The position numbers and the translations under genes were made by a program. Of a stretch of 62,410 nt of DNA, positions 41,478-58,343 are shown piece by piece. Each line of letters begins with the position of its first letter. Position 1 is the first letter of the stretch. Origin of the DNA: a virus (Duplodnaviria; Caudoviricetes); the IMG/VR virus record IMGVR_UViG_3300013132_000053, positions 1 to 62,410 of that record, one strand, 5' to 3'. Under the pieces are notes generated by a model. That model saw only the letters and a list, made by a program, of their open reading frames with translations, made no database searches and was not told where the DNA came from.

Positions 41478-41493
41478 AACTGTGAGGTCTTCA

Positions 41494-42129: not shown

Positions 42130-42911
42130 TAACATTTAATTTGATGGGAAACTATGGAAGATTGGGGAACCAAATGTTTCAGTACGCTACTCTTTATTCA
42201 ATTGCAAAAACAAGAGGATATGAGTTTGGCGTACCTATGCAAAGAAAATCCAAAAACCCATATCACAACTTTTGTTTAAATGAATGTTTTCCAAATCTTT
42301 CTGCAAAAGACAGCACAAATTCAGTTTCAAGTCATAGAGCACAGGAAAGAGAATTTACATACAATGCTGGAATATTTGGTGTACCGGATAATACGGATAT
42401 AACTGGTTATTTTCAAAGTGAAAAATATTTTGTAGATTACAGGCCTCAGATATTGAAAGAATTTAGTTTTAAAGATGAAATTTTTGAAAAATGCGTAGAT
42501 ATAAGAAACATCACAAAGGAACCAGTTATATCTGTACATTTAAGAATTGGAGATTATAAAAATTTAGTAGGTAAACATCCAATATGTTCTATTGAGTATT
42601 ATCAAAAAGCATTGGAATTATTACCAAACGATTTATTAATTATAGCATTTAGCGATGAACCAAATGAAGCTAAAAAACTATTTGATTCACTTGGTAGAAA
42701 GTATTTCATACCAGAGAACGATCAATACTATGATATGTGCTTAATGACACTTTGTAATTATCATGTAATTGCAAACAGCAGTTTTAGTTGGTGGGGGTCT
42801 TGGTTAAGCAAAAGCAAGAAAACAATTGCACCGTCTGAATGGTTTGGTAATTCTCCAGAAATGCCAAAGAACTGGTCAGATATATATTGTGATGGTTGGT
42901 GTATTATATGA
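42126..42911 (+). CDS. GT11 alpha-1,2-fucosyltransferase family
   Basis: GRLGNQMFQYA, GYFQSEKYF, VHLRIGDY, NSSFSWW. Confidence 0.9.
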   Translation: MITFNLMGNYGRLGNQMFQYATLYSIAKTRGYEFGVPMQRKSKNPYHNFCLNECFPNLSAKDSTNSVSSHRAQEREFTYNAGIFGVPDNTDITGYFQSEKYFVDYRPQILKEFSFKDEIFEKCVDIRNITKEPVISVHLRIGDYKNLVGKHPICSIEYYQKALELLPNDLLIIAFSDEPNEAKKLFDSLGRKYFIPENDQYYDMCLMTLCNYHVIANSSFSWWGSWLSKSKKTIAPSEWFGNSPEMPKNWSDIYCDGWCII

Positions 42912-43729
42912 ATAAGTTAAATATTTTTACTACAGCATTTAATACTCATTCTTGTTTAAACAGTCCCCCAAAAAATTTTGAGTGGATCTTTAATGTATAT
43001 CCTAAAAAAAAAGAGCCTGTTGTTTATTTTGATGATGCCATTTTTAGATACATGAATGACGGCTACAACGGTCTAAAATATGGATGGCTGGGGGAATCTT
43101 CTGAAATAATAGCACCACTTATAATGGGCGTAACTTTAAATAAAGATATACTAAAATTAAGATACAAAAAAATATTTACTAATGACAGAAGAATTATAAA
43201 CATAGATCCCCAATTTTTTTCTTATAATCCTCCAGCTTCTAACATGCCATGGATTAAAGAACCCAATGTATATGAAAAAAATAAATTGTGTTCTTATACA
43301 ACAAGTTTTAAACAATTTACTTCTGGTCATATAAAAAGAATGGAGTTGTTTGAAAAATTAAAAAACAATCCTAACTTTAAAGATCATATTTTTGGAAGAG
43401 ATTATAAATTTATACCTGACAAATTAGACGGTTTAAAAGATTACATGTTTTCTATAGTTGTAGAAAATAGCATTTATCCAAAATATTATACTGAAAAAAT
43501 AACAGATTGTTTTGCTACAGGAACGGTGCCTATATACTATGGTGATAAAAGCATAGGTGAAGATTTTAATACTAAAGGTATAATTTTTATAGACGATATG
43601 GAAACCTTTGATGTTCTTACTCCAGAACTATATCAAGAGTGTTTGCCATATGTAAAAGAAAATTACGACAGAGTAAATAATCTTACCACAGCTGATGATT
43701 TTATTTACAAGAGTGTAATGAATGATTAA
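42908..43729 (+). CDS. GT10-like fucosyltransferase family
   Basis: YMFSIVVEN...YYTEKITDCFATGTVPIYYG. Confidence 0.75.
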   Translation: MNKLNIFTTAFNTHSCLNSPPKNFEWIFNVYPKKKEPVVYFDDAIFRYMNDGYNGLKYGWLGESSEIIAPLIMGVTLNKDILKLRYKKIFTNDRRIINIDPQFFSYNPPASNMPWIKEPNVYEKNKLCSYTTSFKQFTSGHIKRMELFEKLKNNPNFKDHIFGRDYKFIPDKLDGLKDYMFSIVVENSIYPKYYTEKITDCFATGTVPIYYGDKSIGEDFNTKGIIFIDDMETFDVLTPELYQECLPYVKENYDRVNNLTTADDFIYKSVMND

Positions 43730-44588
43730 ATTAAGTATACATAATTTTTGGCCTGATTTTAATTACAATGAAAGTTTTTTTATATCTTTATTAAAAGATT
43801 TATATGGAGATGATTTAATTGTTACAAACAATGTAAATGATTGCAATTTATGTCTTGTTGCAGAAAACTATGTTCCCAAAGAAATAGACAGATCAAAAAC
43901 AAAAATATTGACATTTATGGCTGAACCAAAACCAGTTCAGTATCAAGATGGTGACTATCATCTTTCTTTTGATCCAGACCGAGAAGATTTAAAAAACATA
44001 AGATTACCATCATGGTATGTTTACATTAATTTTTACAATCTTCAAAATCAAAAAAATCCAATTCCAGTAATAAATCAATACGAGCTGGACAACAATAAAT
44101 GGATTAATACAACAAAAAACAAATTTTGTGTTGCTCCGTTTTCTGCAATACATAAAAATAGAGTTGATTTTTTAAATATTTTGAATACTTATAAACCAAC
44201 ACATGGATTTGGTCTTCCATTTGGCAATGGAGACAATGATAGAAACCAATTAAGAAAATATGATGCTATTTGTTCATTCAAATTTGCTATGGCATTTGAG
44301 AACACTCATAAACTTGGATATGTAACTGAAAAGTTTTTTCAAGCCAAAACAGCAGGGTGTATACCAATTTATTGGGGTGATTCCTACGTTTTAAGTGATT
44401 TTAATCCAGATTGTTTTATATACGTAAACAATTTTAAAACATATGAAGAATGTTTAGATTACGTAAAATACGTTGATTCAAATGAAGACGTGTATCAAAA
44501 AATGAAAAATGCTCCAATTTTTAAATATGACATAAACAAGTCACTTAATACAATAAAACAAAAAATTAAACAAACAATTCAATTATGA
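43722..44588 (+). CDS. GT10 alpha-1,3-fucosyltransferase family
   Basis: NFWPDF...RLPSW...KFAMAFEN...GYVTEK...AGCIPIYWG. Confidence 0.85.
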   Translation: MIKLSIHNFWPDFNYNESFFISLLKDLYGDDLIVTNNVNDCNLCLVAENYVPKEIDRSKTKILTFMAEPKPVQYQDGDYHLSFDPDREDLKNIRLPSWYVYINFYNLQNQKNPIPVINQYELDNNKWINTTKNKFCVAPFSAIHKNRVDFLNILNTYKPTHGFGLPFGNGDNDRNQLRKYDAICSFKFAMAFENTHKLGYVTEKFFQAKTAGCIPIYWGDSYVLSDFNPDCFIYVNNFKTYEECLDYVKYVDSNEDVYQKMKNAPIFKYDINKSLNTIKQKIKQTIQL

Positions 44589-45349
44589 AAACTAAAGTAA
44601 TAACTTTACCAAAAGCCAAAGAAAGACAAAAAAGAATAAAAACATCATTTGATGCAAATTCAATTTTATTTGATTTTGTAGATGGGGTTGAATTTAAAGA
44701 TTGTCAATTTCATGAAATAAATGGCAAACATTATGTAGAAAATAAAAAAAATTTGTTTGAGATAAATGAAGATCTATTTGTATTTAATACAAATAGATCT
44801 TGGATGAGATTTGGAGAAATTGGAGCATACATAGCACACTACAATCTATGGAAAGAATTTAATTACAGTAACAATGAAACAATATTAATCTGTGAAGATG
44901 ATGCATATCCACAGTCAGATATGACATTTTTAAATAAAATTGATTTATCAAATGTAGGTTTTATTAATTTACAAACTGTTACCGCTCATAATCAGGACAA
45001 ACAACCTCTTTATAAAGAACCATTTGTTTCATTTGAAAATAATGGACTTGTAAAATACAAAATGGGTATTTCATTATTGTGCGAAGGATTAACGGCATAT
45101 ATGTTAACTAAAACTGGATCTAAAATTTTGTGTGAATACATAGAGAAAAATGGTTTTGTTGGGCCAAATGATTGTTTAATAACAAAATTGGCAGAACAAA
45201 ATATTTTACCAGTTTATTCCCCCGTGCAGCTTGAAAAGTGTTTTGGGCTTGATGCAGAAACAAATCAAATATCATATACACATAGCGGAACATTTAGGGA
45301 TTACAAAAAATTTAACAAAACTACATTACAAATAAAGGATGAAAAATGA
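44585..45349 (+). CDS. GT25 glycosyltransferase
   Basis: FVDGV...GEIGAYIAHYNLW...LICEDD...TAYML. Confidence 0.8.
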   Translation: MKTKVITLPKAKERQKRIKTSFDANSILFDFVDGVEFKDCQFHEINGKHYVENKKNLFEINEDLFVFNTNRSWMRFGEIGAYIAHYNLWKEFNYSNNETILICEDDAYPQSDMTFLNKIDLSNVGFINLQTVTAHNQDKQPLYKEPFVSFENNGLVKYKMGISLLCEGLTAYMLTKTGSKILCEYIEKNGFVGPNDCLITKLAEQNILPVYSPVQLEKCFGLDAETNQISYTHSGTFRDYKKFNKTTLQIKDEK

Positions 45350-45975
45350 ATACAAGAATAAGTGAATTAAAAAATTCTGTTTTTTATGCATTGAATGATG
45401 AAAATAATCACAATGTTACAGATGACATATTTACAATAAAAGGATTTTCTGGTAAAGAATATAAAAAATTTGCAAATAGACTTTTATCTAGAACAAGTAT
45501 AAACAATTATCTAGAAATAGGTGTCTGGTATGGTTCAACCGTAATAGCTGCGCTCAAAGGAAATGAGAACAGATTAAACCACAAAGTAATTGATAACTTT
45601 TCACAATTTGGTTCGCCAAAAAATGAGTTTATAGATAATTGGAATAAAAATTTAAATTGTCAAATAAGTTTGGTGGATCAAGATTGCTTTAAAATTGATT
45701 TTGAGAAAGATAATATACAAAATATAGACGCATATTTTTATGATGGTGATCACAAAGAAGAAGATCATTACCTTGCTTTAAAGTATTATTATCCAGCATT
45801 GGCTCATACATTTATCTACATGGTGGATGATTGGACCTGGCCAGCGGTTCAACAGGGAACATCCAGAGCAATTCAGGATTTGAATTTGAAGATGCATACA
45901 TATGTTTCTTTTGAAGGCTACGAAGATTCAAATGGATGGTGGAATGGTTGTGGAATTTTTGTTTTTGAAAAATAA
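45346..45975 (+). CDS. Class I SAM-dependent methyltransferase (sugar O-methyltransferase-like)
   Basis: YLEIGVWYGST, FYDGDH, YMVDDW. Confidence 0.8.
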   Translation: MNTRISELKNSVFYALNDENNHNVTDDIFTIKGFSGKEYKKFANRLLSRTSINNYLEIGVWYGSTVIAALKGNENRLNHKVIDNFSQFGSPKNEFIDNWNKNLNCQISLVDQDCFKIDFEKDNIQNIDAYFYDGDHKEEDHYLALKYYYPALAHTFIYMVDDWTWPAVQQGTSRAIQDLNLKMHTYVSFEGYEDSNGWWNGCGIFVFEK

Positions 45976-46003
45976 TTATAACTAAAATAAAAATTAATTT
46001 TAA

Positions 46004-46032
46004 TTGACAAAGGTTAAAATTAACAATATAAT
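46004..46032 (+). promoter_or_regulatory. sigma70-type promoter TTGACA-N17-TATAAT (rfbH)
   Basis: Perfect consensus; the only 17-bp spacer I found. Confidence 0.8.
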
Positions 46033-46045
46033 ATTTACGAATATT

Positions 46046-47347
46046 ATGGAACAAATATTACAGTTAATACAAGAGTTTATAACAAACAAACCAAAAAAAA
46101 CCTGGATTCCGGGACACGATACGGTCCAGTATGCTGGTCCATTCTTTGATGCAGAAGAATATGTTGCAGCCACAGAATCCCTTTTAAATGGGTGGCTGGC
46201 GCTCGGTCAATGTGGCATTAAGTTTGAAAATACCTTTCCAAAACTCTTTAACAAGGGTTTTGGAATTCTTACAAATAGCGGTAGCAGTTCTAACTTAATA
46301 ATGATGTCAGCATTGACATCCAAGCGTATGTACAACTTCCCCAAGGGAACAAAGGTTATTACGCCAATTGCTGGTTTTCCAACAACAGTAAATCCAATAT
46401 TTCAAGTTGGATTTGAACCAGCCTTTGTCGATATTGATCTGGATACTCTAAATCTAAATCTAGATCAGGTCGAAGAAAAAGCAAAACAGGGGTGCAAAGT
46501 AATTACGTTTGCACACGTTTTAGGAAATCCACCAAACATGGATCGCCTTATGGAAATAGTAAAGCAGTATGGATTGATTTTGCTTGAAGACTGCTGTGAT
46601 GCTTTGGGATCCACTTACAAAGATGTTCCACTTGGTTCTTTTGGTGAGTTTGCAAGTTGTTCGTTCTATCCAGCGCACCACATGACAATGGGTGAAGGTG
46701 GATTTGTTGCGTGCAATACTTACGAGCAGGAAATTATTATAAGAAGTTTTAGAGAATGGGGAAGAGGTTGCTTCTGTGTTGGACAAAAAGCAAATTTATT
46801 GAAGAATGGTTGCTGTGGAAAACGTTTTTCAAATTGGTTGCCATCACTTCCAGATGAAGTTTTTGATCATAAATACGTCTACGACGAGATTGGATACAAT
46901 TTAAAACCAATTGAGCTGCAGGCTGCAATTGGTTTGGCACAAATGAAAAAACTGCCAACCATACACCAAAAGAGAAAAGAAAACCACAAACGTCTATGCA
47001 AGGTGTTTGAAAAATATGAAGATGTTTTTGTGTTGCCAACTGCAACCAAACATTCAAATCCAAGTTGGTTTGCATTTGCTGTTACAATTAAAGATGGTGC
47101 AGGATTTAAAAGAAAGGACATAGTAAACTTTCTTGAGGATCATAAAATTCAAACACGTCCATATTTTGCTGGTAATATTATGTTGCAACCAGCATATGGT
47201 GAATTTATAAATGAATCTGAGGTTATAAATAATTATCCCAATGCAAGAAAAGTTACTACGGATACGTTTTTTCTTGGAACAAGTCCAGTGATATCATTAG
47301 AACAAATTGATTATATTGAAAAAATTGTGAATAAATTTTTTAAATAA
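46046..47347 (+). CDS. rfbH: NDP-4-keto-6-deoxyglucose 3-dehydratase (E1, RfbH/DdhC)
   Basis: NSGSSSNL, FAHVLGNP, EDCCDALG, SFYPAHHMTMGEGG (His in place of the PLP Lys), GRGCFC...CCGKRF Fe-S motif, DHKYVY..IGYNLK. Confidence 0.92.
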   Translation: MEQILQLIQEFITNKPKKTWIPGHDTVQYAGPFFDAEEYVAATESLLNGWLALGQCGIKFENTFPKLFNKGFGILTNSGSSSNLIMMSALTSKRMYNFPKGTKVITPIAGFPTTVNPIFQVGFEPAFVDIDLDTLNLNLDQVEEKAKQGCKVITFAHVLGNPPNMDRLMEIVKQYGLILLEDCCDALGSTYKDVPLGSFGEFASCSFYPAHHMTMGEGGFVACNTYEQEIIIRSFREWGRGCFCVGQKANLLKNGCCGKRFSNWLPSLPDEVFDHKYVYDEIGYNLKPIELQAAIGLAQMKKLPTIHQKRKENHKRLCKVFEKYEDVFVLPTATKHSNPSWFAFAVTIKDGAGFKRKDIVNFLEDHKIQTRPYFAGNIMLQPAYGEFINESEVINNYPNARKVTTDTFFLGTSPVISLEQIDYIEKIVNKFFK

Positions 47348-47352
47348 AGAAA

Positions 47353-48048
47353 ATGAAAAAAGTATTAATAATAAGTGGGACAACGGATATCTTAACAAAT
47401 TATCTCCCAAATGAAGAGTTGTTTAAAACTGTTGCAGACACTACAATCAAATCCAAACTAGACTATGCAAATCAAAATGGTTATGATTTTTTATATTTGA
47501 ATAACTTTGGTGTGGACATAAAAAATAGATATGGCCCAACAGAAATTGGTTATTTGCGTATGCTTAAAGTTTTTGATGCTATAGAAAATTATGATTATGT
47601 AGCTTGGATAGATGCTGATGCACTGATAACAAATAAAAATTTACGTATAGAAAATTTTCCAATAGATGATTCTGTTTTTTATTGTTCCTATGATTGGACT
47701 GGTTATTATAGTTTAAACACTGGAAATTTTATCTTAAAAAATACTGAAAGAACCAAAATTTTTATTGATCAGTTTTACAATGTATCCAAAAACTACAACA
47801 TGCCAGAAGAACAAGATACAATCAACGCACTTTTTTCAATACCAGAAACAAAAAATAACATAAAGGTATTGGAACACGGTTTTTTGAATGCTGTTCCATC
47901 TGTAGATATAGTGGATAAAAAAATATGGGGAAACAAACCAGTTCCACCCAGTCCTTGGAAATCTGGTAATTTTTTAGTTCATGCCACCGGACTACCAAAT
48001 AGTGAAAGGGTTCGAATATTTAAAGAACACTTTAAAGATTATCTATGA
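47353..48048 (+). CDS. GT34-like glycosyltransferase
   Basis: WIDADALITN, LNTGNFIL, EQD, FLVH. Confidence 0.7.
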   Translation: MKKVLIISGTTDILTNYLPNEELFKTVADTTIKSKLDYANQNGYDFLYLNNFGVDIKNRYGPTEIGYLRMLKVFDAIENYDYVAWIDADALITNKNLRIENFPIDDSVFYCSYDWTGYYSLNTGNFILKNTERTKIFIDQFYNVSKNYNMPEEQDTINALFSIPETKNNIKVLEHGFLNAVPSVDIVDKKIWGNKPVPPSPWKSGNFLVHATGLPNSERVRIFKEHFKDYL

Positions 48049-48722
48049 GCAATTTGCAATTAAAAAACATAACTCTTCTTTCTTACAATTGCGTAAATCC
48101 AATTGAAAGTGTAAAGGCACTTCTATACAGTTCAAAAAAAATTGACTTTGCTAGAATAGTTTTGGTTTCAAGTAAAAAACCAGATAATCTACCAAGTCAC
48201 ATAGAGTTTGTTGAAACAAATTTAAAAACACATTTAGATAGTTCTAAATTTACTTACACTGAACTTCCATCTATAATAAAAACGGATTACTATATTGGAA
48301 TTCACGATGATGGGTTTATAATAAATCCACATCTCTGGACAGATGAATTTTTAGAGTATGATTACATTGGGGCCCCATGGAAATGGGAAGGAAGAAGAAA
48401 TCGTGTTGGAAACGGCGGATTTGTATTAAAAAGTAACAAGTTTATACAACTAACAAAAAATTTAAAGTTTTTGAATATATGTGATGATGGTGAATTGACT
48501 AACATGTATTATGATTACTTTGTTGAAAACGGTTGCAAGTATGCTCCAGTAGAAGTGGCTATGAAATTTTCATTAGAATCAAAAATTCCAGAATGTAATT
48601 TGGATCTCAGCACTTGTTTTGGTTTTCATGGAAAAGGTAGACCAGAAGATACTCAGGTACATGATGGATATTACCATCAATTTCAAGAAAAAATAAAACT
48701 ATTGGAAGAAATAGAATTATGA
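48045..48722 (+). CDS. DUF5672 family putative glycosyltransferase
   Basis: HDDGFIINP.LWTDEFLEYDYIGAPW...VGNGGF...A.KFS.E...FGFHG. Confidence 0.8.
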   Translation: MSNLQLKNITLLSYNCVNPIESVKALLYSSKKIDFARIVLVSSKKPDNLPSHIEFVETNLKTHLDSSKFTYTELPSIIKTDYYIGIHDDGFIINPHLWTDEFLEYDYIGAPWKWEGRRNRVGNGGFVLKSNKFIQLTKNLKFLNICDDGELTNMYYDYFVENGCKYAPVEVAMKFSLESKIPECNLDLSTCFGFHGKGRPEDTQVHDGYYHQFQEKIKLLEEIEL

Positions 48723-49528
48723 AAAAATATGTTATAATTAAACCGGATGAATATTGTGGAATGTTTGGATGTTTGTGGCAAGTAATACGCGGAATTTATC
48801 ATAATCCAGATAATCTTTATTACATAAATTTTTATGACAGTATTTACAATACAAAAAATGAAAATGTGTTTGATTACTTTTTTTATCAACCACATACAGA
48901 AATTTTTCCAGATTCTTCAAAAATTGAAAAAATTGTTGGCCACAATTCTTTGCCAGATAATAAAGAGGATAGTCAATTTATTTGGTCATTAATTCAACCA
49001 AACACAAAAGAAGAAATACAAAGAAGAAGAATTATTTTTAATTCAATTATAAACAAATATTTAAAATTAAAACCAACAGTACAAGAAAAAATAGATCTTT
49101 TTACTTTAAAAAATTTTCTTGGTAAAAAAATTTTGGGTGTTCATTTAAGAGGAACTGATCATCCATACAAACAACCAATAAATGTATATATTGATGAAAT
49201 TAAAAAAATAGAATCATTGTATGATAAAATTTTTGTAACGTCTGATGAACAACCAAGGTTTGATGCTGTAAAAAATGTATTTGGAGAAAAGGTTATAAGT
49301 TATGATGCATTAAGAAGTTCAATAGAACATACTCCATTGCATATGAATTTATATGAAACTAGATGGCATAGAAATCCATCACATGAATATCAATATAAAA
49401 TTGCAGAAGATGTTATAATAGAAGCATATTTAATGGCTAAAACAGATTTTCTTTGTTGTTTTTCTGGATCAAATGTAAATACATATGCTAGAGCACTAAA
49501 CCCAAATCTAGAATCTATGGAATTATAA
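48719..49528 (+). CDS. NodZ/GT23-like fucosyltransferase
   Basis: CGMFG, LGVHLRGTD, FVTSDE, SNV. Confidence 0.7.
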   Translation: MKKYVIIKPDEYCGMFGCLWQVIRGIYHNPDNLYYINFYDSIYNTKNENVFDYFFYQPHTEIFPDSSKIEKIVGHNSLPDNKEDSQFIWSLIQPNTKEEIQRRRIIFNSIINKYLKLKPTVQEKIDLFTLKNFLGKKILGVHLRGTDHPYKQPINVYIDEIKKIESLYDKIFVTSDEQPRFDAVKNVFGEKVISYDALRSSIEHTPLHMNLYETRWHRNPSHEYQYKIAEDVIIEAYLMAKTDFLCCFSGSNVNTYARALNPNLESMEL

Positions 49529-49529
49529 T

Positions 49530-50480
49530 ATGAAAGTTGTATACGTAACAGGATGTCTTGGATTTATTGGTTCATATATCACCAAAATGTGTCTTGAGAA
49601 GGGATGGCATGTCAAGGGTGTTGACAGCATGACTTATGCAGCAAACGATGAACTGCTTGACGAGTTTAAGCAATATAAGAATTTCTCGTTTGTTCATTGC
49701 GACATCAATGATCTTCAATTTTTATACGACTGCGACTACATTATTAATACAGCAGCAGAAACTCATGTAGGAAACTCAATCGCCAACAGCAATGAGTTTG
49801 TTCGTACCAACATCAATGGCGCACATAACTTGTTGGAGTTGATCAAGAACTACCGACAAGAGAACACAAAGGTTCCTACACTACTTCACTTCAGCACAGA
49901 CGAGGTGTATGGTGATATCGTTGAAGGATTCCATACCGAAAAGGATCTCCTCAAACCATCCAACCCATATGCTGCAACAAAAGCTGCTGCCGATATGTTG
50001 ATATTGGCTTGGCACAGAACCTACGGCATACCCTACATCATCGTTCGCCCAACCAACAACTATGGCATAGGTCAGTATGTAGAGAAGTTGATTCCAAAGG
50101 TCTGCAAGTATCTGCACTTGGGTAGAAAGATCCCGTTGCACAACAAGGGAACACCGATCAGAAATTGGCTACACGCAGAAGACACAGCGAACGCAATCAT
50201 CAAAATCATCGACAGCGGTGTGCAGAACGAGGTCTACAACATCTGTGGTGGGTTTGAGCAGAACAACATCGACACCGTAAAGAAGATTCTCTCCGCTAAA
50301 AATTTGGATGAGAATAGTTTGGAAAAGTATGTTGATTTCTCTTGCAACAGACCAGGACAGGATGTAAGATACGCTCTCAATGACGACAAACTGCGGTCTC
50401 TCGGTTGGTCTCCCGTTAAGCAGTTTGATGGAGAACTCACAAAGATTGTAGATTACTACAAAGACAGGTTCATATGGTAA
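49530..50480 (+). CDS. rmlB: dTDP-glucose 4,6-dehydratase-like
   Basis: TGCLGFIGS, AAETHV, STDEVYG, PSNPYAATK, NNYG..Q..EKLIP, RPGQDVRY. Confidence 0.85.
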   Translation: MKVVYVTGCLGFIGSYITKMCLEKGWHVKGVDSMTYAANDELLDEFKQYKNFSFVHCDINDLQFLYDCDYIINTAAETHVGNSIANSNEFVRTNINGAHNLLELIKNYRQENTKVPTLLHFSTDEVYGDIVEGFHTEKDLLKPSNPYAATKAAADMLILAWHRTYGIPYIIVRPTNNYGIGQYVEKLIPKVCKYLHLGRKIPLHNKGTPIRNWLHAEDTANAIIKIIDSGVQNEVYNICGGFEQNNIDTVKKILSAKNLDENSLEKYVDFSCNRPGQDVRYALNDDKLRSLGWSPVKQFDGELTKIVDYYKDRFIW

Positions 50481-52243
50481 AGGTTGCTGACTACATCGCG
50501 CAGTTCCTTGAGACAAAAGGCATTCGCCATGTCTTTATGGTTGCTGGCGGTGGAGCAATGTTTTTAAATGATGGAATGGCAAAGAGCAAGTCCATAAAAG
50601 GTGTGTTCAATCACCACGAACAGGCTTGTGCTATGGCTGCTGTTGGGTATTCTAAGTTCAATAACGAGATAGCGGTTGTCATGCCGACAACTGGCTGCGG
50701 TGGCACCAATACCATAACAGGATTGTTGGATGCATGGCAAGACAGCAACAAGGTTGTTTTCATTTCTGGAAATGTAAACAGGAGGGAGACAACTCACGGA
50801 TTTCGCGTACCCTTGAGAAAGTTTGGAGTTCAAGAGGCTAACATTGTAGATATTGTTAAGCCAATTACCAAGTATGCCGTGATGGTTACAGACCCAAACA
50901 CAATTGCCTATCACCTTGAAAAAGCATTTCATATTTGCGAATCGGGTAGACCTGGACCGGTTTGGATAGATATTCCTATGGATGTACAGGGAAGTTTTAT
51001 CAATGAGGAAGACCTTGTTCACTTTTTGGAAGAGGAAATCCAAGAGGCTGTTGACTTTTCCATGTTTGAACAGTATCTAAAGGAATCAAAGCGTCCTATT
51101 GTTATTGCAGGGTATGGTATCCATCTATCGGGAGCAAAAAAGGAGTTTGTTCGTTTCATTGAGAAGCACAGCTTGCCTGTTGCTTTCACCTATCTTGCAA
51201 TAGATTTTCTGCCATCTGATCATCCTTTGTATGTCGGAAGACTTGGAACCAAAGGAGATCGTGCAGGAAACTTTGCTGTCCAAAACAGCGATCTAGTCAT
51301 TTCTATAGGAAGCAGTTTGAGTGTATCTGTTACAGGATTCCGCTACGATACCTTTGCAAGAGAGGCAAAGGTCCTTGTTGTGGATATTGACAAGCACGAA
51401 CACAAGAAGAATACAGTTAAGGTCGATGCAGAAATCAATACCGATGTGAAGGAGTTCCTGCGTCAGGTCGATAGTGTAAACTACAGAGCAGATCAATGGT
51501 GGGTAGATAAGTGTATATCTTGGAGAGAGAAGTGGCCTGTATTTCTTGAAGAATACAAAGACACTACCAATGGCATCAATATCTACTACTTCATGCAGAA
51601 ACTCTCAGAAAAAAACAAAGCAGATGCAGCTGTTGTCAGCGATGCAGGATCTGCATACTACGCAACCTCGCAAGCGTTGAAGATAACCAATCAACAGCGA
51701 TACATAACTTCGGGCGCACAGGCAGACATGGGGTTCTCTATACCTGCTGCAATCGGTACAGCATTAGCGTCAGGCAGAAAGAACATTGTTGCGATAACGG
51801 GAGATGGCTCGTTTCAAATGAACATTCAGGAACTGCAAACTGTGGTTGGTTCGAAACTACCAATCAAAATCTTTGTGCTGAACAATGGTGGATATCTCTC
51901 TATTCGCAACACGATGGACAAGTTTTTTGAAAGTCGCTACTATGGAACAGATACAGCATCGGGGCTTTCGTTTCCAGAAATTCAAAAAATTGCATACGCA
52001 TATGGCATCCCCTATTATAAGTTAAGGTCAACGGAAGATCTTGATCACAAACTGACAGAAGTACTGAATACTGATGGATGCGCTCTCGTTGAAGTAATGT
52101 GTCCGTTCAAGCAAGACATGGCACCGTCATCCTCTGCAAAAATAGGAACCGATGGTAAACTGGTATCTCAACCGCTAGAAAATATGTTCCCCTTCCTTGA
52201 TGACAAGGAATTTAAGAAAGAAATGATAGTAAACCCCCTATAA
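50474..52243 (+). CDS. ThDP-dependent carboligase, acetolactate-synthase-like (YerE-type)
   Basis: GGGAMFLND, HHEQACAMAA, GRPGPVWIDIPMDVQ, GDGSFQMNIQEL...NNGGY; sugar-cluster context. Confidence 0.85.
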   Translation: MVKVADYIAQFLETKGIRHVFMVAGGGAMFLNDGMAKSKSIKGVFNHHEQACAMAAVGYSKFNNEIAVVMPTTGCGGTNTITGLLDAWQDSNKVVFISGNVNRRETTHGFRVPLRKFGVQEANIVDIVKPITKYAVMVTDPNTIAYHLEKAFHICESGRPGPVWIDIPMDVQGSFINEEDLVHFLEEEIQEAVDFSMFEQYLKESKRPIVIAGYGIHLSGAKKEFVRFIEKHSLPVAFTYLAIDFLPSDHPLYVGRLGTKGDRAGNFAVQNSDLVISIGSSLSVSVTGFRYDTFAREAKVLVVDIDKHEHKKNTVKVDAEINTDVKEFLRQVDSVNYRADQWWVDKCISWREKWPVFLEEYKDTTNGINIYYFMQKLSEKNKADAAVVSDAGSAYYATSQALKITNQQRYITSGAQADMGFSIPAAIGTALASGRKNIVAITGDGSFQMNIQELQTVVGSKLPIKIFVLNNGGYLSIRNTMDKFFESRYYGTDTASGLSFPEIQKIAYAYGIPYYKLRSTEDLDHKLTEVLNTDGCALVEVMCPFKQDMAPSSSAKIGTDGKLVSQPLENMFPFLDDKEFKKEMIVNPL

Positions 52244-52254
52244 GGAGATTAGTT

Positions 52255-53193
52255 ATGGCAGCAGACAGCAAGACAAAGAAGACAATTCTGACTTTAACCA
52301 CCAACAAGGCAAAGGGAGTAAAGACAGTACTAGTTACTGCCTATGATTATCCACAAGCAATTCTCGCAGATCGCGCAGGAGTAGATTGCATCCTGATCGG
52401 AGACTCCCTAGGAATGACTACGCTTGGTTACAAGACAACCATTCCTGTGACTATGGATGACATGATTCGCAGTTGCGAGGCAGTAAGTAAGGGCAACCAG
52501 AATGCATTCCTCATTGGAGATATGCCCTATATGTCCTATCAGCCCTCAAACCAAGTAGCCGTAGAAAACGCAGGACGATTTATCGTTGCTGGTTGTGACA
52601 TGGTTAAGGTAGAGGGAGCGATGATTGATCGCGTCAAGGCAATTGTTGATTCGGGCATCATGGTAATGAGCCATTTGGGTCTGACCCCGCACACGCGGGC
52701 GAAGTTGGGAGGTTACAAGGTTCAAGGCAAGACTGCCGATCAAGCAGAAGTCATTCTCAAGCAGGCACTCAAACTGCAAGAGGCTGGATGCTCTGCGCTA
52801 CTTCTAGAGGCAATGCCAAAGGAACCGGCGGGACTCATTGCCCGAGAACTGAAGATTCCTGTGTACGGCATTGGTGGCGGAAACGAAGTCGATGGTCAGT
52901 TGGTCATCTTCCACGATCTGACGGGGTTGTTCTGGGAATTCAAGTCCAAGTTTGTCAAGCGATACTGCGAGGCAGGAAAGATCATTCAAGATGCTCTGAC
53001 ACAGTACACAGAAGAAGTCAGATCTGGCGCGTTTCCTGGTCCCGAGAACTTTTATGAAATCAAGGAAGAGGAACTTGAGAAGTTGCTTGGAGATGACAAG
53101 TGGAAGTATGAACAGGATAGGGTGGAGAACAACGCAACTCCCAATCATTGCGTAACACCAATCACCGCCAATCCAACAGAGATCAAACGATAA
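52255..53193 (+). CDS. panB: Ketopantoate hydroxymethyltransferase (PanB)-like enzyme
   Basis: TAYD, GDSLGM, GDMPYMSY, VKVEG, HLGLTP, GGYKVQG, GIGGG..DGQ. Confidence 0.88.
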   Translation: MAADSKTKKTILTLTTNKAKGVKTVLVTAYDYPQAILADRAGVDCILIGDSLGMTTLGYKTTIPVTMDDMIRSCEAVSKGNQNAFLIGDMPYMSYQPSNQVAVENAGRFIVAGCDMVKVEGAMIDRVKAIVDSGIMVMSHLGLTPHTRAKLGGYKVQGKTADQAEVILKQALKLQEAGCSALLLEAMPKEPAGLIARELKIPVYGIGGGNEVDGQLVIFHDLTGLFWEFKSKFVKRYCEAGKIIQDALTQYTEEVRSGAFPGPENFYEIKEEELEKLLGDDKWKYEQDRVENNATPNHCVTPITANPTEIKR

Positions 53194-53211
53194 TAGGATA
53201 GAGGTGGCTAA

Positions 53212-53979
53212 ATGAGAGTACTCATTACAGGAGGTAATGGCTATATTGCAAGAAGTCTCTACTCTGCATTAGCAGATAAGCACTGCACCACAAAGGTGAC
53301 AAGAGCGGATTTTAATTTGTCCGATTCAAAGCAAACCAATGCATGGTTTCAAGACAAATCATTTGATGCTGTCATCCATACTGCGATTGTTGGTGGTAGC
53401 CGATTAAATCAGGACGATTCTTCCATAGTTGATTCAAACTTAAGGATGTACTACAATCTCGTAGCAAATAAAGACAGGTTTCATCGTCTCATATCTTTTG
53501 GATCGGGAGCTGAGAAGTTTGCTGCTGAAACTCCATATGGTATGAGTAAAAAAATTATAGCAGATTCAATTAGAACCACGGATAACTTCTACAATCTTCG
53601 CATATTTGCAGTTTTTAGTGAAAACGAATTGGATACAAGGTTTATAAAATCAAATATTATTCGCTATAAAAGAAAAAAAGCCATTGAGGTCCATTGCAAT
53701 AAAATAATGGATTTTTTTTACATGGAAGATTTGATTACTCTTGTTGATTATTACTTATCAGAAAAAAATCCCCCAAAAGAAATAAATTGTAACTACGAAG
53801 AAAAAAAAAGTTTGGTTGAAATTTCAAATATTATTAATAACAGTGAAAAACACAAAGTAAACATAAATTTGAAAGATCCCAATATTTTAGAATTTTATTG
53901 TGGACCTAACACTAAATTGCCATTAAAATACATTGGTCTTGAAAAGGGAATTGAAAAAACATTTAACTTGATTAATTGA
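53212..53979 (+). CDS. NAD(P)-dependent sugar epimerase/reductase (extended SDR)
   Basis: ITGGNGYIA, FGSGAE, YGMSK. Confidence 0.8.
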   Translation: MRVLITGGNGYIARSLYSALADKHCTTKVTRADFNLSDSKQTNAWFQDKSFDAVIHTAIVGGSRLNQDDSSIVDSNLRMYYNLVANKDRFHRLISFGSGAEKFAAETPYGMSKKIIADSIRTTDNFYNLRIFAVFSENELDTRFIKSNIIRYKRKKAIEVHCNKIMDFFYMEDLITLVDYYLSEKNPPKEINCNYEEKKSLVEISNIINNSEKHKVNINLKDPNILEFYCGPNTKLPLKYIGLEKGIEKTFNLIN

Positions 53980-53993
53980 TAAGGATATTTATC

Positions 53994-54998
53994 ATGAAAA
54001 AAACAGCTTTAATTATTGGCGCAAATGGTCAAGACGCTTCATATCTTGCAGAGTTTTTGTTAGATAAAAATTACGAGGTTCACGGTACAATTCGTAGAAA
54101 CTCCGTACCAGAATCACAAACAACTAGAATTCAACACCTTCACGATAAAAATTTAATTAATTTACACTATGCAGATTTAACAGATCCAATTAGCATTGAA
54201 TCTGTAATTCAAAGATTGCAACCAAATGAAATTTATCATTTGGCAGCACAATCTCACGTGCAGATTTCGTTTGAACTTCCGCAATACACTCTAAATGTAA
54301 ATGGTGGGGGTACTCTCGCTGTATTGGAAGCCGTCAGACGTTTTTCACCACATTCCAAGGTCTATCACGCAGCCACATCCGAAATGTTTGGAAACTCATC
54401 TGACGAGGATGGATTCCAGCGCGAAACAACGACAATGATTCCTGTCAGCCCATATGGCTGCGCTAAGCTTTATGCGCACACACTGTGCAGAAATTATGCA
54501 GAATCATATGGCATGTTTGTTTGTTCAGGAATATTGTTTAACCATGAATCGCCTCGCCGGGGCATTAACTTTGTAACAAACAAGGTTGCGTTGCAGGCAG
54601 CAAAGATTAAATTGGGCTTTGCCGACAAGCTAGTTTTGGGAAACCTTCATGCAAAGCGTGACTGGGGCCATGCTAAGGACTATATTGAAGGCATGTGGCT
54701 AATGCTACAGCAACCCAAGCCAGACAGTTTTGTTTTGGCCACCGGGGAAACCAGATCCGTAAAGGAAATGGTGGACCACGTATTTAATAGATTGGATTTA
54801 AACGTTGATACCTATCTGCAGACGGCTGAAAAGTATTACAGACCGGAAGAACTCCACTATCTTCGTGGAGATGCTACCAAAGCAAAGACTGTTCTCGGAT
54901 GGAAGCCAAAAATTACATTTAGTGAGATGATGGATGAGATGGTTGACTATTGGGTTGAAAAACTTAAAAAAACAAATGTTGATTTAGTTGACGTTTAA
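53994..54998 (+). CDS. gmd: GDP-mannose 4,6-dehydratase
   Basis: GQDASYLAE, LAAQSHV..SF, TSEMFG, SPYGCAK, GILFNHESPRRG, RDWGHAKDY. Confidence 0.95.
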   Translation: MKKTALIIGANGQDASYLAEFLLDKNYEVHGTIRRNSVPESQTTRIQHLHDKNLINLHYADLTDPISIESVIQRLQPNEIYHLAAQSHVQISFELPQYTLNVNGGGTLAVLEAVRRFSPHSKVYHAATSEMFGNSSDEDGFQRETTTMIPVSPYGCAKLYAHTLCRNYAESYGMFVCSGILFNHESPRRGINFVTNKVALQAAKIKLGFADKLVLGNLHAKRDWGHAKDYIEGMWLMLQQPKPDSFVLATGETRSVKEMVDHVFNRLDLNVDTYLQTAEKYYRPEELHYLRGDATKAKTVLGWKPKITFSEMMDEMVDYWVEKLKKTNVDLVDV

Positions 54999-55006
54999 TG
55001 TATAAT
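54979..55006 (+). promoter_or_regulatory. sigma70-type promoter TTGATT-N16-TATAAT (gene 55); in-frame GTG 6 nt after the -10
   Basis: Located inside the 3' end of gmd. Confidence 0.65.
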
Positions 55007-55582
55007 AATAATGTGAAAAAGCCAAAAAAAAAGAAATCAAAAACATCGGACGCAGATTATGTAGATAATCAAGCACTGTACGATGCTTTGGTGGAATACA
55101 GAAAAAAGTGCAAGGATGCAGAAAACTCAGGCAAAAAAAAGCCAAAACTTACTGATTACTTGGGCGAATGCATTTTAAAGATAGCAACAAGATTATCTTA
55201 TAGACCAAATTTTGCAAACTACCCATATAGAGAAGAAATGGTTTCAGATGCAGTATTAAATTGCATAACCTATATCGACAACTTTGACCCAAAGAAGTCC
55301 ACCAGCCCGTTTGGTTACCTAACCCAAATATGCTGGTTTTCTTTTGTTCGTATAATAAACAAGGAAAAGAAAGAAAAGTACACGCAATTTAAATTTGCAG
55401 AGCAGCAGAACAACAAGGACTTTCACAATTGGTTCAATGAAACCTATGCCGGTGTTGACATCGGAAGAAAGGATTTCTTTGGTCTCACTGATTCCGACAT
55501 GGAACGCTTTGACGAAATGTGCAGTCCCAAGAAAAAGAAAAGAAAGAAGAGAAAGACAAAGAAAAACATTTTTGACATATGA
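54998..55582 (+). CDS. 55: Late sigma factor gp55 (alternative start GTG 55013)
   Basis: YVDN...YLGECILKIA..LSYRPNFANY.YREEMVSDA...NFDP.KS.SPFGYLTQI. Confidence 0.95.
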   Translation: MYNNNVKKPKKKKSKTSDADYVDNQALYDALVEYRKKCKDAENSGKKKPKLTDYLGECILKIATRLSYRPNFANYPYREEMVSDAVLNCITYIDNFDPKKSTSPFGYLTQICWFSFVRIINKEKKEKYTQFKFAEQQNNKDFHNWFNETYAGVDIGRKDFFGLTDSDMERFDEMCSPKKKKRKKRKTKKNIFDI

Positions 55583-56625
55583 AAGCAATAATCCTAAACG
55601 ACAGCCATTTTGGTTACAAAGCTGATTCCCCAATAGTCCTTGATTATTTTCTGTCTTTTTTTGAAGAACAGCTTTTTCCTTACATGCAAGAAAATAAGAT
55701 AAAAACATTATTTCATCTTGGCGATCTTTTTGACAGAAGAAAATACATAAACTTTAAAACACTTAATCAAGTTAGAAAAAGATTTCTTGACCCGCTTTAT
55801 GAAATGGGAATCCGTTGCCACATAATATGTGGAAACCATGATACTTATTACAGAAATACAAATAACGTAAATTCATTGTCTGAACTTGTTGAACATTATT
55901 TTAATTGGAATATTCATTCTGAGCCAAGGGAACTAAAACTTGAACACGCCAACCTAGCACTTGTTCCTTGGATAAACAATGAAAATGAATCCGAAGTTGT
56001 AAAATTTTTGGAAGAAACAAAAGCACAGATATTGTTTGGACATCTTGAACTTTTTGGCTTTCAGAGTTTAAGGGGAGTATTTGTGGAGCAAGGACATGAT
56101 GCAAAACATTTTAATAAATTTGAATATGTTCTTACTGGCCATTATCATCTTAAGTCTAGCCGTGACAATATCCATTATCTTGGAACGCAATACCAAATGG
56201 CTTTTTCTGATGTTGATGAGACAAAAGGATTCCACGTATTTGACTTCAAGAATCGTTCTTTATCGTTTGTTGAAAATACAAAAAAGCTTTTCCACACGTT
56301 TGATTATAATGAAGATAAACCGCAAAAAATCGATTATAAAACGCTCAAAGATTGTTATGTCAAGATTCGTATTAAAAACCGTACTAAGAGCGCAGCTTTT
56401 GAAAAGTACATTGACAAATTCTATGAAGCAGGCGTGGCAGAATTGGCAATAGAAGAGGAAGTCATCACCAATCCAGAGCTGGTCGCAGTAGATATTCACA
56501 AAGATACTTTGCAGCTTCTTCACGAGGAAATAGAGACAATAAACGACAAATCAATAAATAAAGTAAATCTTGCAAAGATAATAAACGAAGCATACAATGC
56601 GGCATTGTCAAAGGATGAAGAGTGA
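55579..56625 (+). CDS. 47: Recombination endonuclease gp47 (Mre11-like)
   Basis: DSHFG, LGDLFDRRK, GNHD, GHLE, GHYH. Confidence 0.95.
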   Translation: MKAIILNDSHFGYKADSPIVLDYFLSFFEEQLFPYMQENKIKTLFHLGDLFDRRKYINFKTLNQVRKRFLDPLYEMGIRCHIICGNHDTYYRNTNNVNSLSELVEHYFNWNIHSEPRELKLEHANLALVPWINNENESEVVKFLEETKAQILFGHLELFGFQSLRGVFVEQGHDAKHFNKFEYVLTGHYHLKSSRDNIHYLGTQYQMAFSDVDETKGFHVFDFKNRSLSFVENTKKLFHTFDYNEDKPQKIDYKTLKDCYVKIRIKNRTKSAAFEKYIDKFYEAGVAELAIEEEVITNPELVAVDIHKDTLQLLHEEIETINDKSINKVNLAKIINEAYNAALSKDEE

Positions 56626-58343
56626 TTGAATTTTTAAAAGTTAGATTTAAAAATTTTGGATCGTTTGGAAACAATTTTACAGAAATTGATTTAAATAGCC
56701 GTAAAACAACTTTGGTGACGGGGACGAATGGAAACGGGAAATCCTTCGCTCTTCTTGACTCGATCTGTTTTGGACTATTTGGCAAGCCTTTCCGGCCAAT
56801 CAATATCCCCCAGCTTGTCAATAGCGTAAATGCAAAAGGATGTGTGGTTGAAATTGAATTTAATAAATCAAATTCTCATTACATGATTCGAAGGGGATTG
56901 GCTCCAAAACTTTTTGAAATTTATAAAGATGGCGAGTTATTGGATCAAAATTCCAAGTCAAAGGATTATCAAGGATATCTTGAGGAACATGTTCTTGGAT
57001 TTGATTTTTCTGCTTTTAAGCAAGTTGTCATTCTTGGCAAGTCGAACTTTATTCCCTTCATGCAATTGACCCCTGCAGAACGCCGTAAAATCATTGAGGG
57101 GCTGCTTGAGTTGGATATATTGGCTGACATGAATGTTTATGTCAAAGGTCAACTTGGATCGTTTAAAGTAAGTATTTTGGAGCAAGATTCACTTTTAAAG
57201 ATAGTCCACGAAAAGATAAAATCCCAGAAAGAATTTATAGAACAAATAAAAAATCACAATGAAGATGACATTAAAGCAATTAATGACAAGATAAAATCAT
57301 ATGAGGATGGTATGGCACTGGCATCTTCTGAAAAGATAAACATTTTAAAAAATTTCAATAAACTCAAGACTGAAATAAAGAAAAACAAAGATCATATACA
57401 TTCTCTCAGGGATGTTCCTGCAATGTTAGTCAAGACAGAGACTCTTGAGTCTACTCTGAAGGATGAAATACAGTCACTTCGTTCCACTGCCACATGCAAA
57501 TGCTGTGGGCAAGATCTTCCAAAGGATCAAAAGGAAAAACACATAAAGGAAAAAGAAGCCAAGTTACTGGAATGCAGAAAGGCTCTGGTAACAGCAAATA
57601 GCAAAAACGAAGAGCTAAAGGGTGCACAGGAACTTCTTGAAAAGCAAAAAAACGAAGAGAGCGTTCTTTATAGCAATATTTCAGGCTTGAGCTATAGAAT
57701 TGGAAATGCGGATTCAAACATAAAAGTTTTGGAAAAAGAAAAAAAAGAAAAAGAGACCAGCAGCAACATTGCATCCTTCCAAATCAGTCTTGAAGAATCT
57801 GAATCCAAAAAACTAGAAATATCTAACAAACTGCAAGATCTAATAAATGAACAAATTCACCACGATGTTGTCTACGATATCCTCAAGGATGGTGGCCTTA
57901 AGAGCCGAATTATCAAGCATTATGTTCCCATCATCAATGGACTCGTTAACAAGTTCCTCGGAAAACTTAATCTCTACGTTGACTTTACCATCGATGAGGA
58001 GTTCAAGGAAACAATCAAGTCAAGATATCGAGATGCATTTTCATATTCCAGTTTCTCTGAGGGAGAAAAACAGCGTATCGATCTGGCCATATTGCTGACT
58101 TGGCGCGAAATAGCCAAGATGAAGAATAGTCTTAATTGTAACCTTTTGATCTTTGATGAAATACTTGATTCTTCTTTGGATGCAACAGGAACAGAATCTT
58201 TCTTAAAATTACTTAACAAGATGAAAAATAAATGCTCAATATTTATTATAAGTCATAAAGCAGATTCGCTGACTGATAAATTTGATCAACATATGGCGTT
58301 TGAAAAGAAGAACAATTTTTCCAAGATAAAAGTTCAAGTATAA
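56622..58343 (+). CDS. 46: Recombination ATPase gp46 (Rad50-like)
   Basis: GTNGNGKS, CKCCGQ hook, FSEGEK, LIFDE, ISHK. Confidence 0.95.
   Translation: MIEFLKVRFKNFGSFGNNFTEIDLNSRKTTLVTGTNGNGKSFALLDSICFGLFGKPFRPINIPQLVNSVNAKGCVVEIEFNKSNSHYMIRRGLAPKLFEIYKDGELLDQNSKSKDYQGYLEEHVLGFDFSAFKQVVILGKSNFIPFMQLTPAERRKIIEGLLELDILADMNVYVKGQLGSFKVSILEQDSLLKIVHEKIKSQKEFIEQIKNHNEDDIKAINDKIKSYEDGMALASSEKINILKNFNKLKTEIKKNKDHIHSLRDVPAMLVKTETLESTLKDEIQSLRSTATCKCCGQDLPKDQKEKHIKEKEAKLLECRKALVTANSKNEELKGAQELLEKQKNEESVLYSNISGLSYRIGNADSNIKVLEKEKKEKETSSNIASFQISLEESESKKLEISNKLQDLINEQIHHDVVYDILKDGGLKSRIIKHYVPIINGLVNKFLGKLNLYVDFTIDEEFKETIKSRYRDAFSYSSFSEGEKQRIDLAILLTWREIAKMKNSLNCNLLIFDEILDSSLDATGTESFLKLLNKMKNKCSIFIISHKADSLTDKFDQHMAFEKKNNFSKIKVQV

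Follow-up and report, generated by a model that had tools for sequence, protein, structure and literature searches.

What is a gene for a PanB-type 2-oxo acid hydroxymethyltransferase, known as an enzyme of vitamin B5 synthesis, doing among the sugar genes of a virus? This question is raised by the IMG/VR record IMGVR_UViG_3300013132_000053, from which we analyzed a stretch of 62,410 bases, called the window in the following. The record is estimated to be about 34% complete, and T4-like core genes mark the window as a fragment of a T4-like virus. The panB-like gene (52255-53193) lies on the plus strand between the genes for a thiamine diphosphate (ThDP)-dependent enzyme (50474-52243) and a short-chain dehydrogenase/reductase (SDR; 53212-53979), and the same block contains genes for two sugar nucleotide dehydratases (46004-47347 and 49530-50480). 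From homology and gene context we propose, with a probability of roughly 0.6, that the block from 46004 to 53979 encodes a pathway to a nucleoside diphosphate (NDP)-activated 3,6-dideoxyhexose with an acyl-derived branch at C4, in which PanB would build the 2-oxo acid that donates the branch. The scheme of acyl-branched sugars is known; the proposed use of PanB as donor builder and the viral carrier are new.

The proposed reaction sequence would start from NDP-glucose of the host, most likely deoxythymidine diphosphate (dTDP)-glucose, which the RmlB-like enzyme would convert to the 4-keto-6-deoxy sugar. The hydroxyl group at C3 would be removed by the E1/RfbH-type enzyme, with ferredoxin- or flavodoxin-type reductases of the host in place of a dedicated E3 reductase. 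PanB would hydroxymethylate C3 of a 2-oxo acid of the host with methylene-tetrahydrofolate to form a 4-hydroxy-2-oxo acid; the candidate donors are ketopantoate (from 2-oxoisovalerate), its 3-methyl analogue (from 2-oxobutyrate) and 4-hydroxy-2-oxobutanoate (from pyruvate). The YerE-like ThDP enzyme would decarboxylate this donor and add the hydroxyacyl unit to the ketone at C4, giving a tertiary alcohol, and the carbonyl group of the branch would be reduced by the short SDR in the manner of YerF. The surrounding transferases would then use the finished branched sugar. The PanB reaction is a metal-assisted enolisation of a 2-oxo acid, of the same kind as in aldolases, with methylene-tetrahydrofolate as one-carbon electrophile.

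The ThDP enzyme and PanB genes are linked in uncultured viruses

The preliminary description of this locus had reported that the rmlB-like, ThDP, panB-like and SDR genes are contiguous, with rfbH three genes upstream of the rmlB-like gene, inside a glycosyltransferase island. The open reading frames (ORFs) and the Pfam and NCBIfam matches agreed with this layout down to the coordinates. A scan of IMG/VR with the window PanB confirmed 119 contigs, and the 80 best were analyzed further; homologues of the neighboring proteins were called in these loci by tblastn when at least half of the query was covered. A homologue of the ThDP enzyme was present in 79 of the 80 loci, and the sole miss (L072) is a contig that is cut 331 nucleotides upstream of panB. 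Homologues of the DegT/RfbH protein were detected in 70 loci, of the RmlB-like protein in 58 and of the SDR in 58, the last usually encoded directly after panB. ORF maps, which recovered PanB in 78 loci (not in L032 and L078, owing to clustering), revealed that the ThDP gene and panB are immediate neighbors in 77 of them, with panB as the first gene of the pair in 18. The PanB proteins of these loci share 68-99% identity with that of the window and the adjoining ThDP enzymes 31-88%; the PanB relatives were drawn from many aquatic metagenomes, including Tara. The gene arrangement is therefore not a matter of chance, since the pair recurs in nearly every related viral locus. The neighborhood search for panB beside YerE-like and rfbH genes, which had been named earlier as a check, thus found the pair in 79 of 80 viral loci and also in 10 of 13 loci from genome collections.

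The ThDP enzyme resembles YerE-like carboligases

All three domains of ThDP enzymes (N-terminal PF02776, middle PF00205 and C-terminal PF02775) were matched in the window protein. It contains the ThDP-binding GDG motif, which is invariant in all ten PanB-linked enzymes that were aligned. The best acetolactate synthase model, TIGR00118, yielded 359 bits at a cut-off of 538, and the scores with all equivalog models of acetolactate synthases were far below the cut-offs. The best solved relative was JanthE from Janthinobacterium sp. HH01 (8RPH) with 398 bits (E 7e-118), in comparison to 256 bits for the best acetolactate synthase, a plant enzyme. The preliminary description had envisaged trees of both enzymes: the PanB tree separated the window protein from the housekeeping enzymes (see below); the tree of ThDP enzymes contains no YpYerE or ErwE sequence. 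Representatives of two other PanB-linked ThDP classes reached 330 and 283 bits (L047) and 301 and 293 bits (L010) with two solved YerE-like proteins, versus 242 and 232 bits with acetolactate synthase.

According to the accessible parts of PMC12188165 and PMC12247030, JanthE is a YerE-like carboligase that accepts ketones and couples them to 2-oxo acids of varied length, with a wide donor range. It differs from the window enzyme by a CDG instead of a GDG motif and by K567, which aligns with Ser552 of the window enzyme; the variant K567S of JanthE is described in section 2.2 of PMC12188165 with a fivefold increase in the formation of tertiary alcohols. On the basis of these similarities we propose that the window protein is a YerE-like carboligase that would add an acyl unit to C4 of a keto sugar. 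Its dN/dS, from the comparison of the window with L002, was 0.046.

Six viral loci of the set (L012, L037, L039, L052, L064 and L068) and the bacterial locus L089 (2922-5059) encode, in addition to the YerE-like enzyme and PanB, a split ThDP enzyme of the E1-dehydrogenase/transketolase type. This split type is a second known kind of sugar-branching enzyme, and it is unusual for a single cluster to combine two ThDP-dependent systems for branching.

Other putative donor cassettes take the place of PanB

When IMG/VR was scanned again, now with the aligned ThDP enzymes as query, 385 contigs were confirmed, and among the best 80 of these PanB was present in 51 loci. The 29 loci without PanB revealed what else may stand beside the ThDP gene. 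Six contain an HpcH/HpaI aldolase (L101, L103, L104, L110, L118 and L163; assigned by Pfam in L103, L110 and L163 and by homology in the others). An HMGL-like protein, from the family of the BphI-type pyruvate aldolases, was matched by Pfam in L165, with which L166 and L167 group in the ThDP tree only. L169 encodes a DAHP/KDO8P-synthase-like protein together with an RraA-like aldolase and a ribulose-phosphate epimerase, and L170 a NeuB-like protein with an SDR and a dehydroquinate-synthase-like protein. Twelve loci (L102, L105, L154, L155, L157-L162, L164 and L171) share a conserved cassette of three genes that flanks the ThDP gene and encodes a DJ-1/PfpI protein, a cupin-like one and one of about 129 amino acids without family match (for example L160:4394-6004). 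Three others have no recognizable donor enzyme (L107, L119 and L152), and in the last three the contig ends just past the ThDP gene (L130, L132 and L146). One locus with the DJ-1 cassette, L155, which also contains RmlB-like and SDR genes, is from a contig named as a giant-virus metagenome-assembled genome (MAG); its gene content resembles that of the phage loci.

In a FastTree phylogeny of 118 ThDP enzymes, which has several long branches and unsure deep joins, the clade of the window (nine rows, all with PanB) is sister to a clade of eight rows with a support of 99. Four members of this sister clade are linked to an aldolase, two to the DJ-1 cassette and two to neither. The cassette labels required 15 changes on the tree, in comparison to a mean of 26.4 after shuffling, a clustering that relatedness alone could yield. 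As PanB occupies the slot of the aldolases in otherwise equivalent loci, the most plausible reading is that it serves as an alternative source of the donor acid.

There are precedents for such a division of labor. In the clusters for erwiniose, caryophyllose and gastriose, the YerE-like gene adjoins that of an aldolase, which forms a 4-hydroxy-2-oxo acid, the ThDP enzyme adds the unit derived from this acid to cytidine diphosphate (CDP)-4-keto-3,6-dideoxyglucose and a reductase acts on the branch; ErwE accepts 4-hydroxy-2-oxobutanoate and rejects pyruvate (Steitz et al. 2022, PMC9306805, in its accessible part). These systems (ErwE/ErwF with ErwI, MMAR_2332 with MMAR_2331 and MyGE with MygI) have in common with the window a YerE-like enzyme, an adjacent candidate for the donor builder, an NAD(P)H-dependent reductase and genes for an NDP-4-keto-3,6-dideoxyhexose. 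In contrast, a pyruvate aldolase is found there and PanB, which would use methylene-tetrahydrofolate, is found here; the dehydratase is of the CDP type there and of the dTDP type here; and the carrier here is a phage. The yersiniose A system of Yersinia pseudotuberculosis (DdhA-D, YerE and YerF) likewise comprises a 4,6-dehydratase, an E1 enzyme, a ThDP-dependent carboligase for the C4 ketone and a branch reductase. The proposal of a yersiniose-type pathway in the preliminary description is supported, since an E1-type 3-dehydratase, a 4,6-dehydratase, a YerE-like carboligase and a reductase are encoded in one block. However, YerE takes pyruvate directly and has no donor builder, and the yersiniose route is CDP-based with a dedicated E3, neither of which was seen in the window.

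A different order of steps would have the ThDP enzyme add an acetyl unit from pyruvate, as YerE does, and PanB hydroxymethylate the enolisable methyl group of the sugar-bound alpha-hydroxy ketone afterwards. The preliminary description had considered both a donor-supplying PanB and such an extension of the acyl branch. The adjacency of the genes fits either order, and an alpha-hydroxy ketone could conceivably chelate the metal like a 2-oxo acid, but the enzymes found in this slot of the sister loci (pyruvate-type aldolases as well as NeuB-like and DAHP-synthase-like proteins) all yield 2-oxo acids in free form, and the rejection of pyruvate by ErwE places the donor first in the erwiniose system (PMC9306805, accessible part). 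The C-terminal extension of PanB described below could suit a larger, nucleotide-bearing substrate; these about 45 poorly structured residues are, however, the only addition to a protein that has no further new domain and keeps all residues conserved in the housekeeping enzymes. We therefore consider an action of PanB after the carboligation unlikely. The supply of a hydroxymethylated donor remains the most likely role, as judged from the adjacency to the ThDP gene and the replacement by aldolases in sister loci, whereas the specific suggestion that the donor is 4-hydroxy-2-oxobutyrate made from pyruvate found no support.

The PanB proteins have a canonical active site and form a separate clade

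The window PanB passed the equivalog cut-offs of TIGR00222 (271 bits, cut-off 207.55) and NF001452 (312 bits, cut-off 272). In comparison to PanB from Escherichia coli (1M3U), the residues matching D45, S46, D84, K112, E114, H136 and E181 are all kept; we take these to be the ligands of metal and substrate. The catalytic columns are conserved throughout the 117 sequences that were used for the tree, namely 15 viral proteins, 13 from genome collections and 89 representatives (the other 61 of 150 representatives were left out because their length was outside 240-330 amino acids). The ThDP-linked PanB proteins form one clade of 29 rows with a support of 99 in the Shimodaira-Hasegawa-like approximate likelihood ratio test. 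Two proteins from genome loci without ThDP neighbor (L092 and L093) fall outside this clade. A strict rule that ties the clade to this linkage is argued against by L083, whose PanB lies inside the clade with no ThDP gene within 8 kb. A second PanB type, with 44-46% identity to that of the window, adjoins YerE-like genes in four further loci (L100:7773-8699, L106:7779-8714, L109:7779-8711 and L111:7388-8323). It falls in the sister clade and has a similar C-terminal extension, and the group of sugar-linked PanB proteins may thus be wider than the clade of 29 rows.

Only V217, C238 and A240 are nearly specific for the clade, and no substrate can be deduced from them by sequence. V217 (L213 in E. 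coli) is located on the strand that carries I212 and V214 of the E. coli enzyme, which line the pocket (PMC7610986, accessible part). The most evident difference in the chain is a C-terminal extension of about 45 amino acids, which is conserved in the clade. An AlphaFold model built from 15 sequences had a mean predicted local distance difference test (pLDDT) value of 74.5, with values mostly below 50 for the extension (residues 266-312). Prediction of a complex between the ThDP enzyme and PanB spoke neither for nor against binding. The dN/dS of PanB in comparison to L002 was 0.005, which indicates strongly purifying selection; in comparison to L003, L005 and L007 the synonymous sites were saturated at a proportion of nonsynonymous differences (pN) of about 0.04.

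With respect to the donor, the canonical active site speaks in the first place for 2-oxoisovalerate as the substrate, with ketopantoate as the product, and suggests that ketopantoate or the 3-methyl analogue is at least as likely as 4-hydroxy-2-oxobutanoate. PanB from E. coli is not known to use pyruvate. The enzyme and its variants have been employed as class II aldolases that combine many 2-oxo acids with formaldehyde, and I202, I212 and V214 shape this substrate scope (PMC7610986 and PMC7611260, each in its accessible part).

The most familiar function of these enzymes would lead to an auxiliary metabolic gene set for pantothenate and coenzyme A or for branched-chain amino acids, in which the ThDP enzyme would be an acetolactate synthase, PanB would form ketopantoate, the SDR would be a ketopantoate reductase and the position in a sugar island would be incidental. 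Three enzymes would indeed fit three steps of the pantoate route, and PanB passes the equivalog cut-off with a canonical active site. In an oxygen-minimum-zone virome a viral 'pantoate transferase', probably of the same gene family, was the most abundant vitamin and cofactor gene and was read as a boost of pantothenate and coenzyme A synthesis (PMC8940887, accessible part); the gene context here points instead to glycan synthesis. The presence of ilvC, ilvD, panE or panC elsewhere in the genome had been named in the preliminary description as evidence for the ordinary functions. Domain searches with PanC, KARI_C (IlvC), ILVD_EDD_N (IlvD) and ApbA (PanE) gave no match in any of five virus records, among them two that are at least 90% complete (148 kb at 90% and 186 kb at 100% completeness). 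The ThDP enzyme misses the acetolactate synthase cut-off by the margin given above and is much nearer to JanthE, and the pair is situated among 3-dehydratase, 4,6-dehydratase and transferase genes in viruses as well as in MAGs, with a dehydratase-type histidine in all 75 DegT-family neighbors. The housekeeping PanB from E. coli has the same fold family and catalytic residues and about 40-47% identity, but the window protein belongs to a separate clade, carries the extension and has a ThDP carboligase and sugar genes as neighbors instead of panC, panD and panE; PanB genes that do adjoin panC are located elsewhere. A vitamin or amino acid function of the set is in our view very improbable.

The dehydratases, the SDR and the nucleotide

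The protein encoded at 46004-47347, which we classify as an E1/RfbH-type NDP-4-keto-6-deoxyhexose 3-dehydratase of the pyridoxamine phosphate and [2Fe-2S] type, belongs to the DegT family and passed the NCBIfam equivalog cut-off of the RfbH model NF011936 (461 bits, cut-off 423). The first ATG of this frame is at position 46046 and is the likely start. The protein aligns over its full length with the solved E1 from Yersinia (3BCX; E 2e-99). In this alignment it has histidine at the position of the lysine that binds pyridoxal phosphate and keeps the four cysteines of the cluster, with a spacer before the last cysteine that is longer by five residues. All 75 DegT-family ORFs from the 70 viral loci and the window contain the dehydratase-type histidine. 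The four cysteines are kept as well in 50 loci and the window, and the remaining DegT ORFs look ColD-like. The class of loci with reversed gene order is devoid of an Fe-S type E1 and contains B12-radical SAM and RmlC-like genes.

The 4,6-dehydratase gene (49530-50480) overlaps the ThDP gene by 7 nucleotides. Its product scored 309 bits with the dTDP-glucose 4,6-dehydratase model TIGR01181, by far the best model, in comparison to 77 bits with the CDP-glucose dehydratase model and 51 bits with that of GDP-mannose 4,6-dehydratase (GMD). As the cut-off of 365 bits was missed, the gene is called RmlB-like only. The SDR, a short extended type of 255 amino acids from the Pfam Epimerase family, contains the glycine-rich Rossmann motif and the YxxxK motif; we propose, by sequence, that it is a YerF-like reductase of the branch carbonyl.

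A domain search of the window revealed no NTP_transferase domain. This is in line with the statement of the preliminary description that no CDP enzymes are present, and the dehydratase is indeed nearest to the dTDP type. The clues to the nucleotide are mixed in so far as the bacterial locus L091 (see below) is CDP-based and the window also has a GMD-like gene. In one related virus record an RmlA gene is located about 2 kb from the module. The absence of an E3 was confirmed too: neither an E3-type NAD_binding_1 nor a Fer2 domain was found in the window of this record, which is only about 34% complete. The gap is a smaller problem than had been thought, since reductases of general cell metabolism can serve E1 homologues such as SpnQ.

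In the loci with an aldolase L103 (8508-10049), L101, L104, L118 and L119, the aldolase is followed by a 385-amino-acid LdpA-like protein with two 4Fe-4S ferredoxin motifs and by a protein of 126 amino acids. The LdpA-like Fe-S protein might be an electron donor for the E1-type dehydratase of those loci.

Least probable of the explanations considered is a joint synthesis, by the ThDP enzyme and PanB, of a branched hydroxy acid in free form (such as the product of the addition of an acyl unit to ketopantoate), which is then attached as a substituent and not as a C-C branch of the ring: enzymes of the acetolactate synthase family naturally take 2-oxo acids as acceptors and the chemistry may differ in the reversed-order loci with their B12-radical SAM and RmlC-like genes, but the pair has neither a ligase nor an acyltransferase gene in its company in the window, and a DegT homologue of the 3-dehydratase type, which makes the keto sugar that YerE-type enzymes accept, is present in 70 of the 80 PanB loci.

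Related loci in bacterial genome collections

A scan of a collection with one genome per species, with two peptide patterns that distinguish this type of PanB, yielded 13 loci from MAGs and single-cell assemblies, and in ten of them the ThDP gene adjoins panB. A bacterial counterpart with the full set of genes is present in an Omnitrophota MAG (L091), in the order glucose-1-phosphate cytidylyltransferase (330 bits, cut-off 300), RfbH (644 bits), 4,6-dehydratase, ThDP enzyme, PanB, SDR and a glycosyltransferase of family 2 (GT2), after which PseB-, PseC- and NeuB-like genes follow. A Nitrospirales MAG (L089) adds an HldE-like gene, the two-component ThDP enzyme of the E1-dehydrogenase type mentioned above, a sugar C-methyltransferase and a B12-radical SAM enzyme. 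Both look like bacterial glycan clusters. The proposed pathway is thus not peculiar to this phage; its genes are widespread in uncultured viruses and occur in bacterial MAGs as well.

Three other loci have PanB proteins identical or nearly identical to those of viral contigs. PanB of a Pelagibacter MAG (L082) is identical to viral L025, PanB of a Prochlorococcus single-cell assembly (L085) groups with viral L057, and the third is the Marinimicrobia single-cell assembly L083. These three are probably phage DNA and may give a hint to the hosts.

The glycan island and its surroundings

The glycan island extends from 41482 to 54998, with every gene on the plus strand and abutting or overlapping its neighbors. 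On one side it is flanked by the minus-strand genes for the UvsW helicase (39444-40943) and UvsY (40951-41388), and on the other side by genes for a small sigma-like protein, a Metallophos nuclease (gp47) and an SMC-type ATPase (gp46) at 54998-58343. The ATPase shares 40-42% identity with gp46 of cyanophages, and by this match Synechococcus phage S-CREM1 comes closest among cultured phages.

According to Pfam, the upstream part of the island (41482-45975) encodes a protein of 215 amino acids, a transferase of family GT11, two of GT10, one of GT25 and a methyltransferase. Between rfbH and the rmlB-like gene are located a GT34/GT8-like glycosyltransferase (47353-48048), a DUF5672 protein (48045-48722) and a 269-amino-acid protein without Pfam match (48719-49528). 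Homologues of these three occupy the corresponding position in L003, L004, L007 and L024, the closest relatives. The 269-amino-acid protein contains an H-x-R-G-T-D stretch, which may correspond to a motif of the fucosyltransferase superfamily.

The last gene of the island (53976-54998) encodes a GMD-like protein with 390 bits in TIGR01472, below the cut-off of 415. Close homologues (at least 55% identity) were found in only four of the 80 viral loci (L007, L008, L013 and L020). The gene probably represents a second sugar line, to a fucose-type 6-deoxyhexose that would feed the GT10 and GT11 transferases, outside the core module. GT11 and the two GT10 proteins (42126-44588) are of fucosyltransferase families, and no synthase for GDP-fucose was recognized in the island; either the host supplies this activity or a different 6-deoxyhexose is made.

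The ThDP and panB genes (50001-54000) have a G+C content of 0.41-0.43 and the transferase genes just upstream one of 0.28-0.34, a contrast that could reflect a recent acquisition of the module or a strong coding constraint. A megablast search with the 9.6-kb block gave no match among cultured phages, and in protein searches no cultured phage record contained the window's PanB type or ThDP enzyme at 60% identity or more. The best matches in such records had 47% identity for PanB and 32% for the ThDP enzyme. The best PanB match is in L172 (MW495066.1, 255405-272139, 'Microcystis phage MaAM05'), where panC and sufBCDS adjoin; this region looks like bacterial chromosome rather than phage.

Discussion

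Several findings speak against a sugar-branching pathway with PanB as donor builder and have to be balanced against the linkage and replacement data. A comparison of the columns of the 29 clade members with those of the 88 others found no clade-specific change of the PanB active site, and by sequence a canonical active site is compatible with ketopantoate synthesis for another purpose. If ketopantoate were the donor, the ketone of the product would be flanked by a quaternary carbon and a tertiary alcohol and would be very crowded, which makes the 3-methyl or unsubstituted analogues serious alternatives. We know of no sugar with such a branch. The window ThDP enzyme reached only 253.5 bits with 5AHK, presumably PpYerE, not more than the 256 bits with the plant acetolactate synthase. 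Because of this low score the assignment as YerE-like leans on JanthE, the natural substrates of which are unknown according to the accessible part of PMC12188165. Both a nucleotidyltransferase and an E3 are missing in the window. Of 25 related virus records, only 4 contained a nucleotidyltransferase, and neither of the two records in this set that are at least 90% complete did, so that the host would have to supply the NDP-hexose. Finally, the chemistry of the DJ-1/cupin cassette, which occupies 12 of the 29 loci without PanB, has no evident link to the supply of a 2-oxo acid, and L107, L119 and L152 lack a recognizable donor enzyme altogether.

A search of titles and abstracts revealed no link between PanB and sugar branching; a mention in the full text of Krug et al. 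2024, with more than 200 YerE-like clusters, or of Lanza et al. 2024, on JanthE, is possible. In a 2025 review of these ThDP enzymes (PMC12247030) the terms 'PanB' and 'hydroxymethyltransferase' do not occur in the available text.

At about even odds we would extend the proposal from this locus to a whole subfamily. The PanB proteins with C-terminal extension would be one-carbon donor builders for the ThDP-dependent branching of deoxy sugars and not enzymes of vitamin B5 synthesis, and YerE-like carboligases with interchangeable donor cassettes would diversify the glycans of phages. These cassettes would comprise PanB, HpcH/HpaI, HMGL-like, NeuB-like and DAHP-synthase-like plus RraA-like enzymes and perhaps the DJ-1/cupin set. 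The product would be a sugar not seen before, with a branch that bears a hydroxymethyl group and is possibly pantoate-like (gem-dimethyl).

If the proposed pathway is correct, the PanB family has another physiological role besides the known one, and branched sugars of a new class are predicted. There is a demand for YerE-like biocatalysts with new donor ranges in the synthesis of chiral tertiary alcohols (PMC12247030, accessible part). An abundant gene of ocean viruses would have to be relabelled from cofactor supply to glycan synthesis, and the 'pantoate transferase' signal of oxygen-minimum zones would be a signal of glycan synthesis. Phages would then carry modular kits for rare sugars, which bears on the remodelling of the host surface or the decoration of their own particles.

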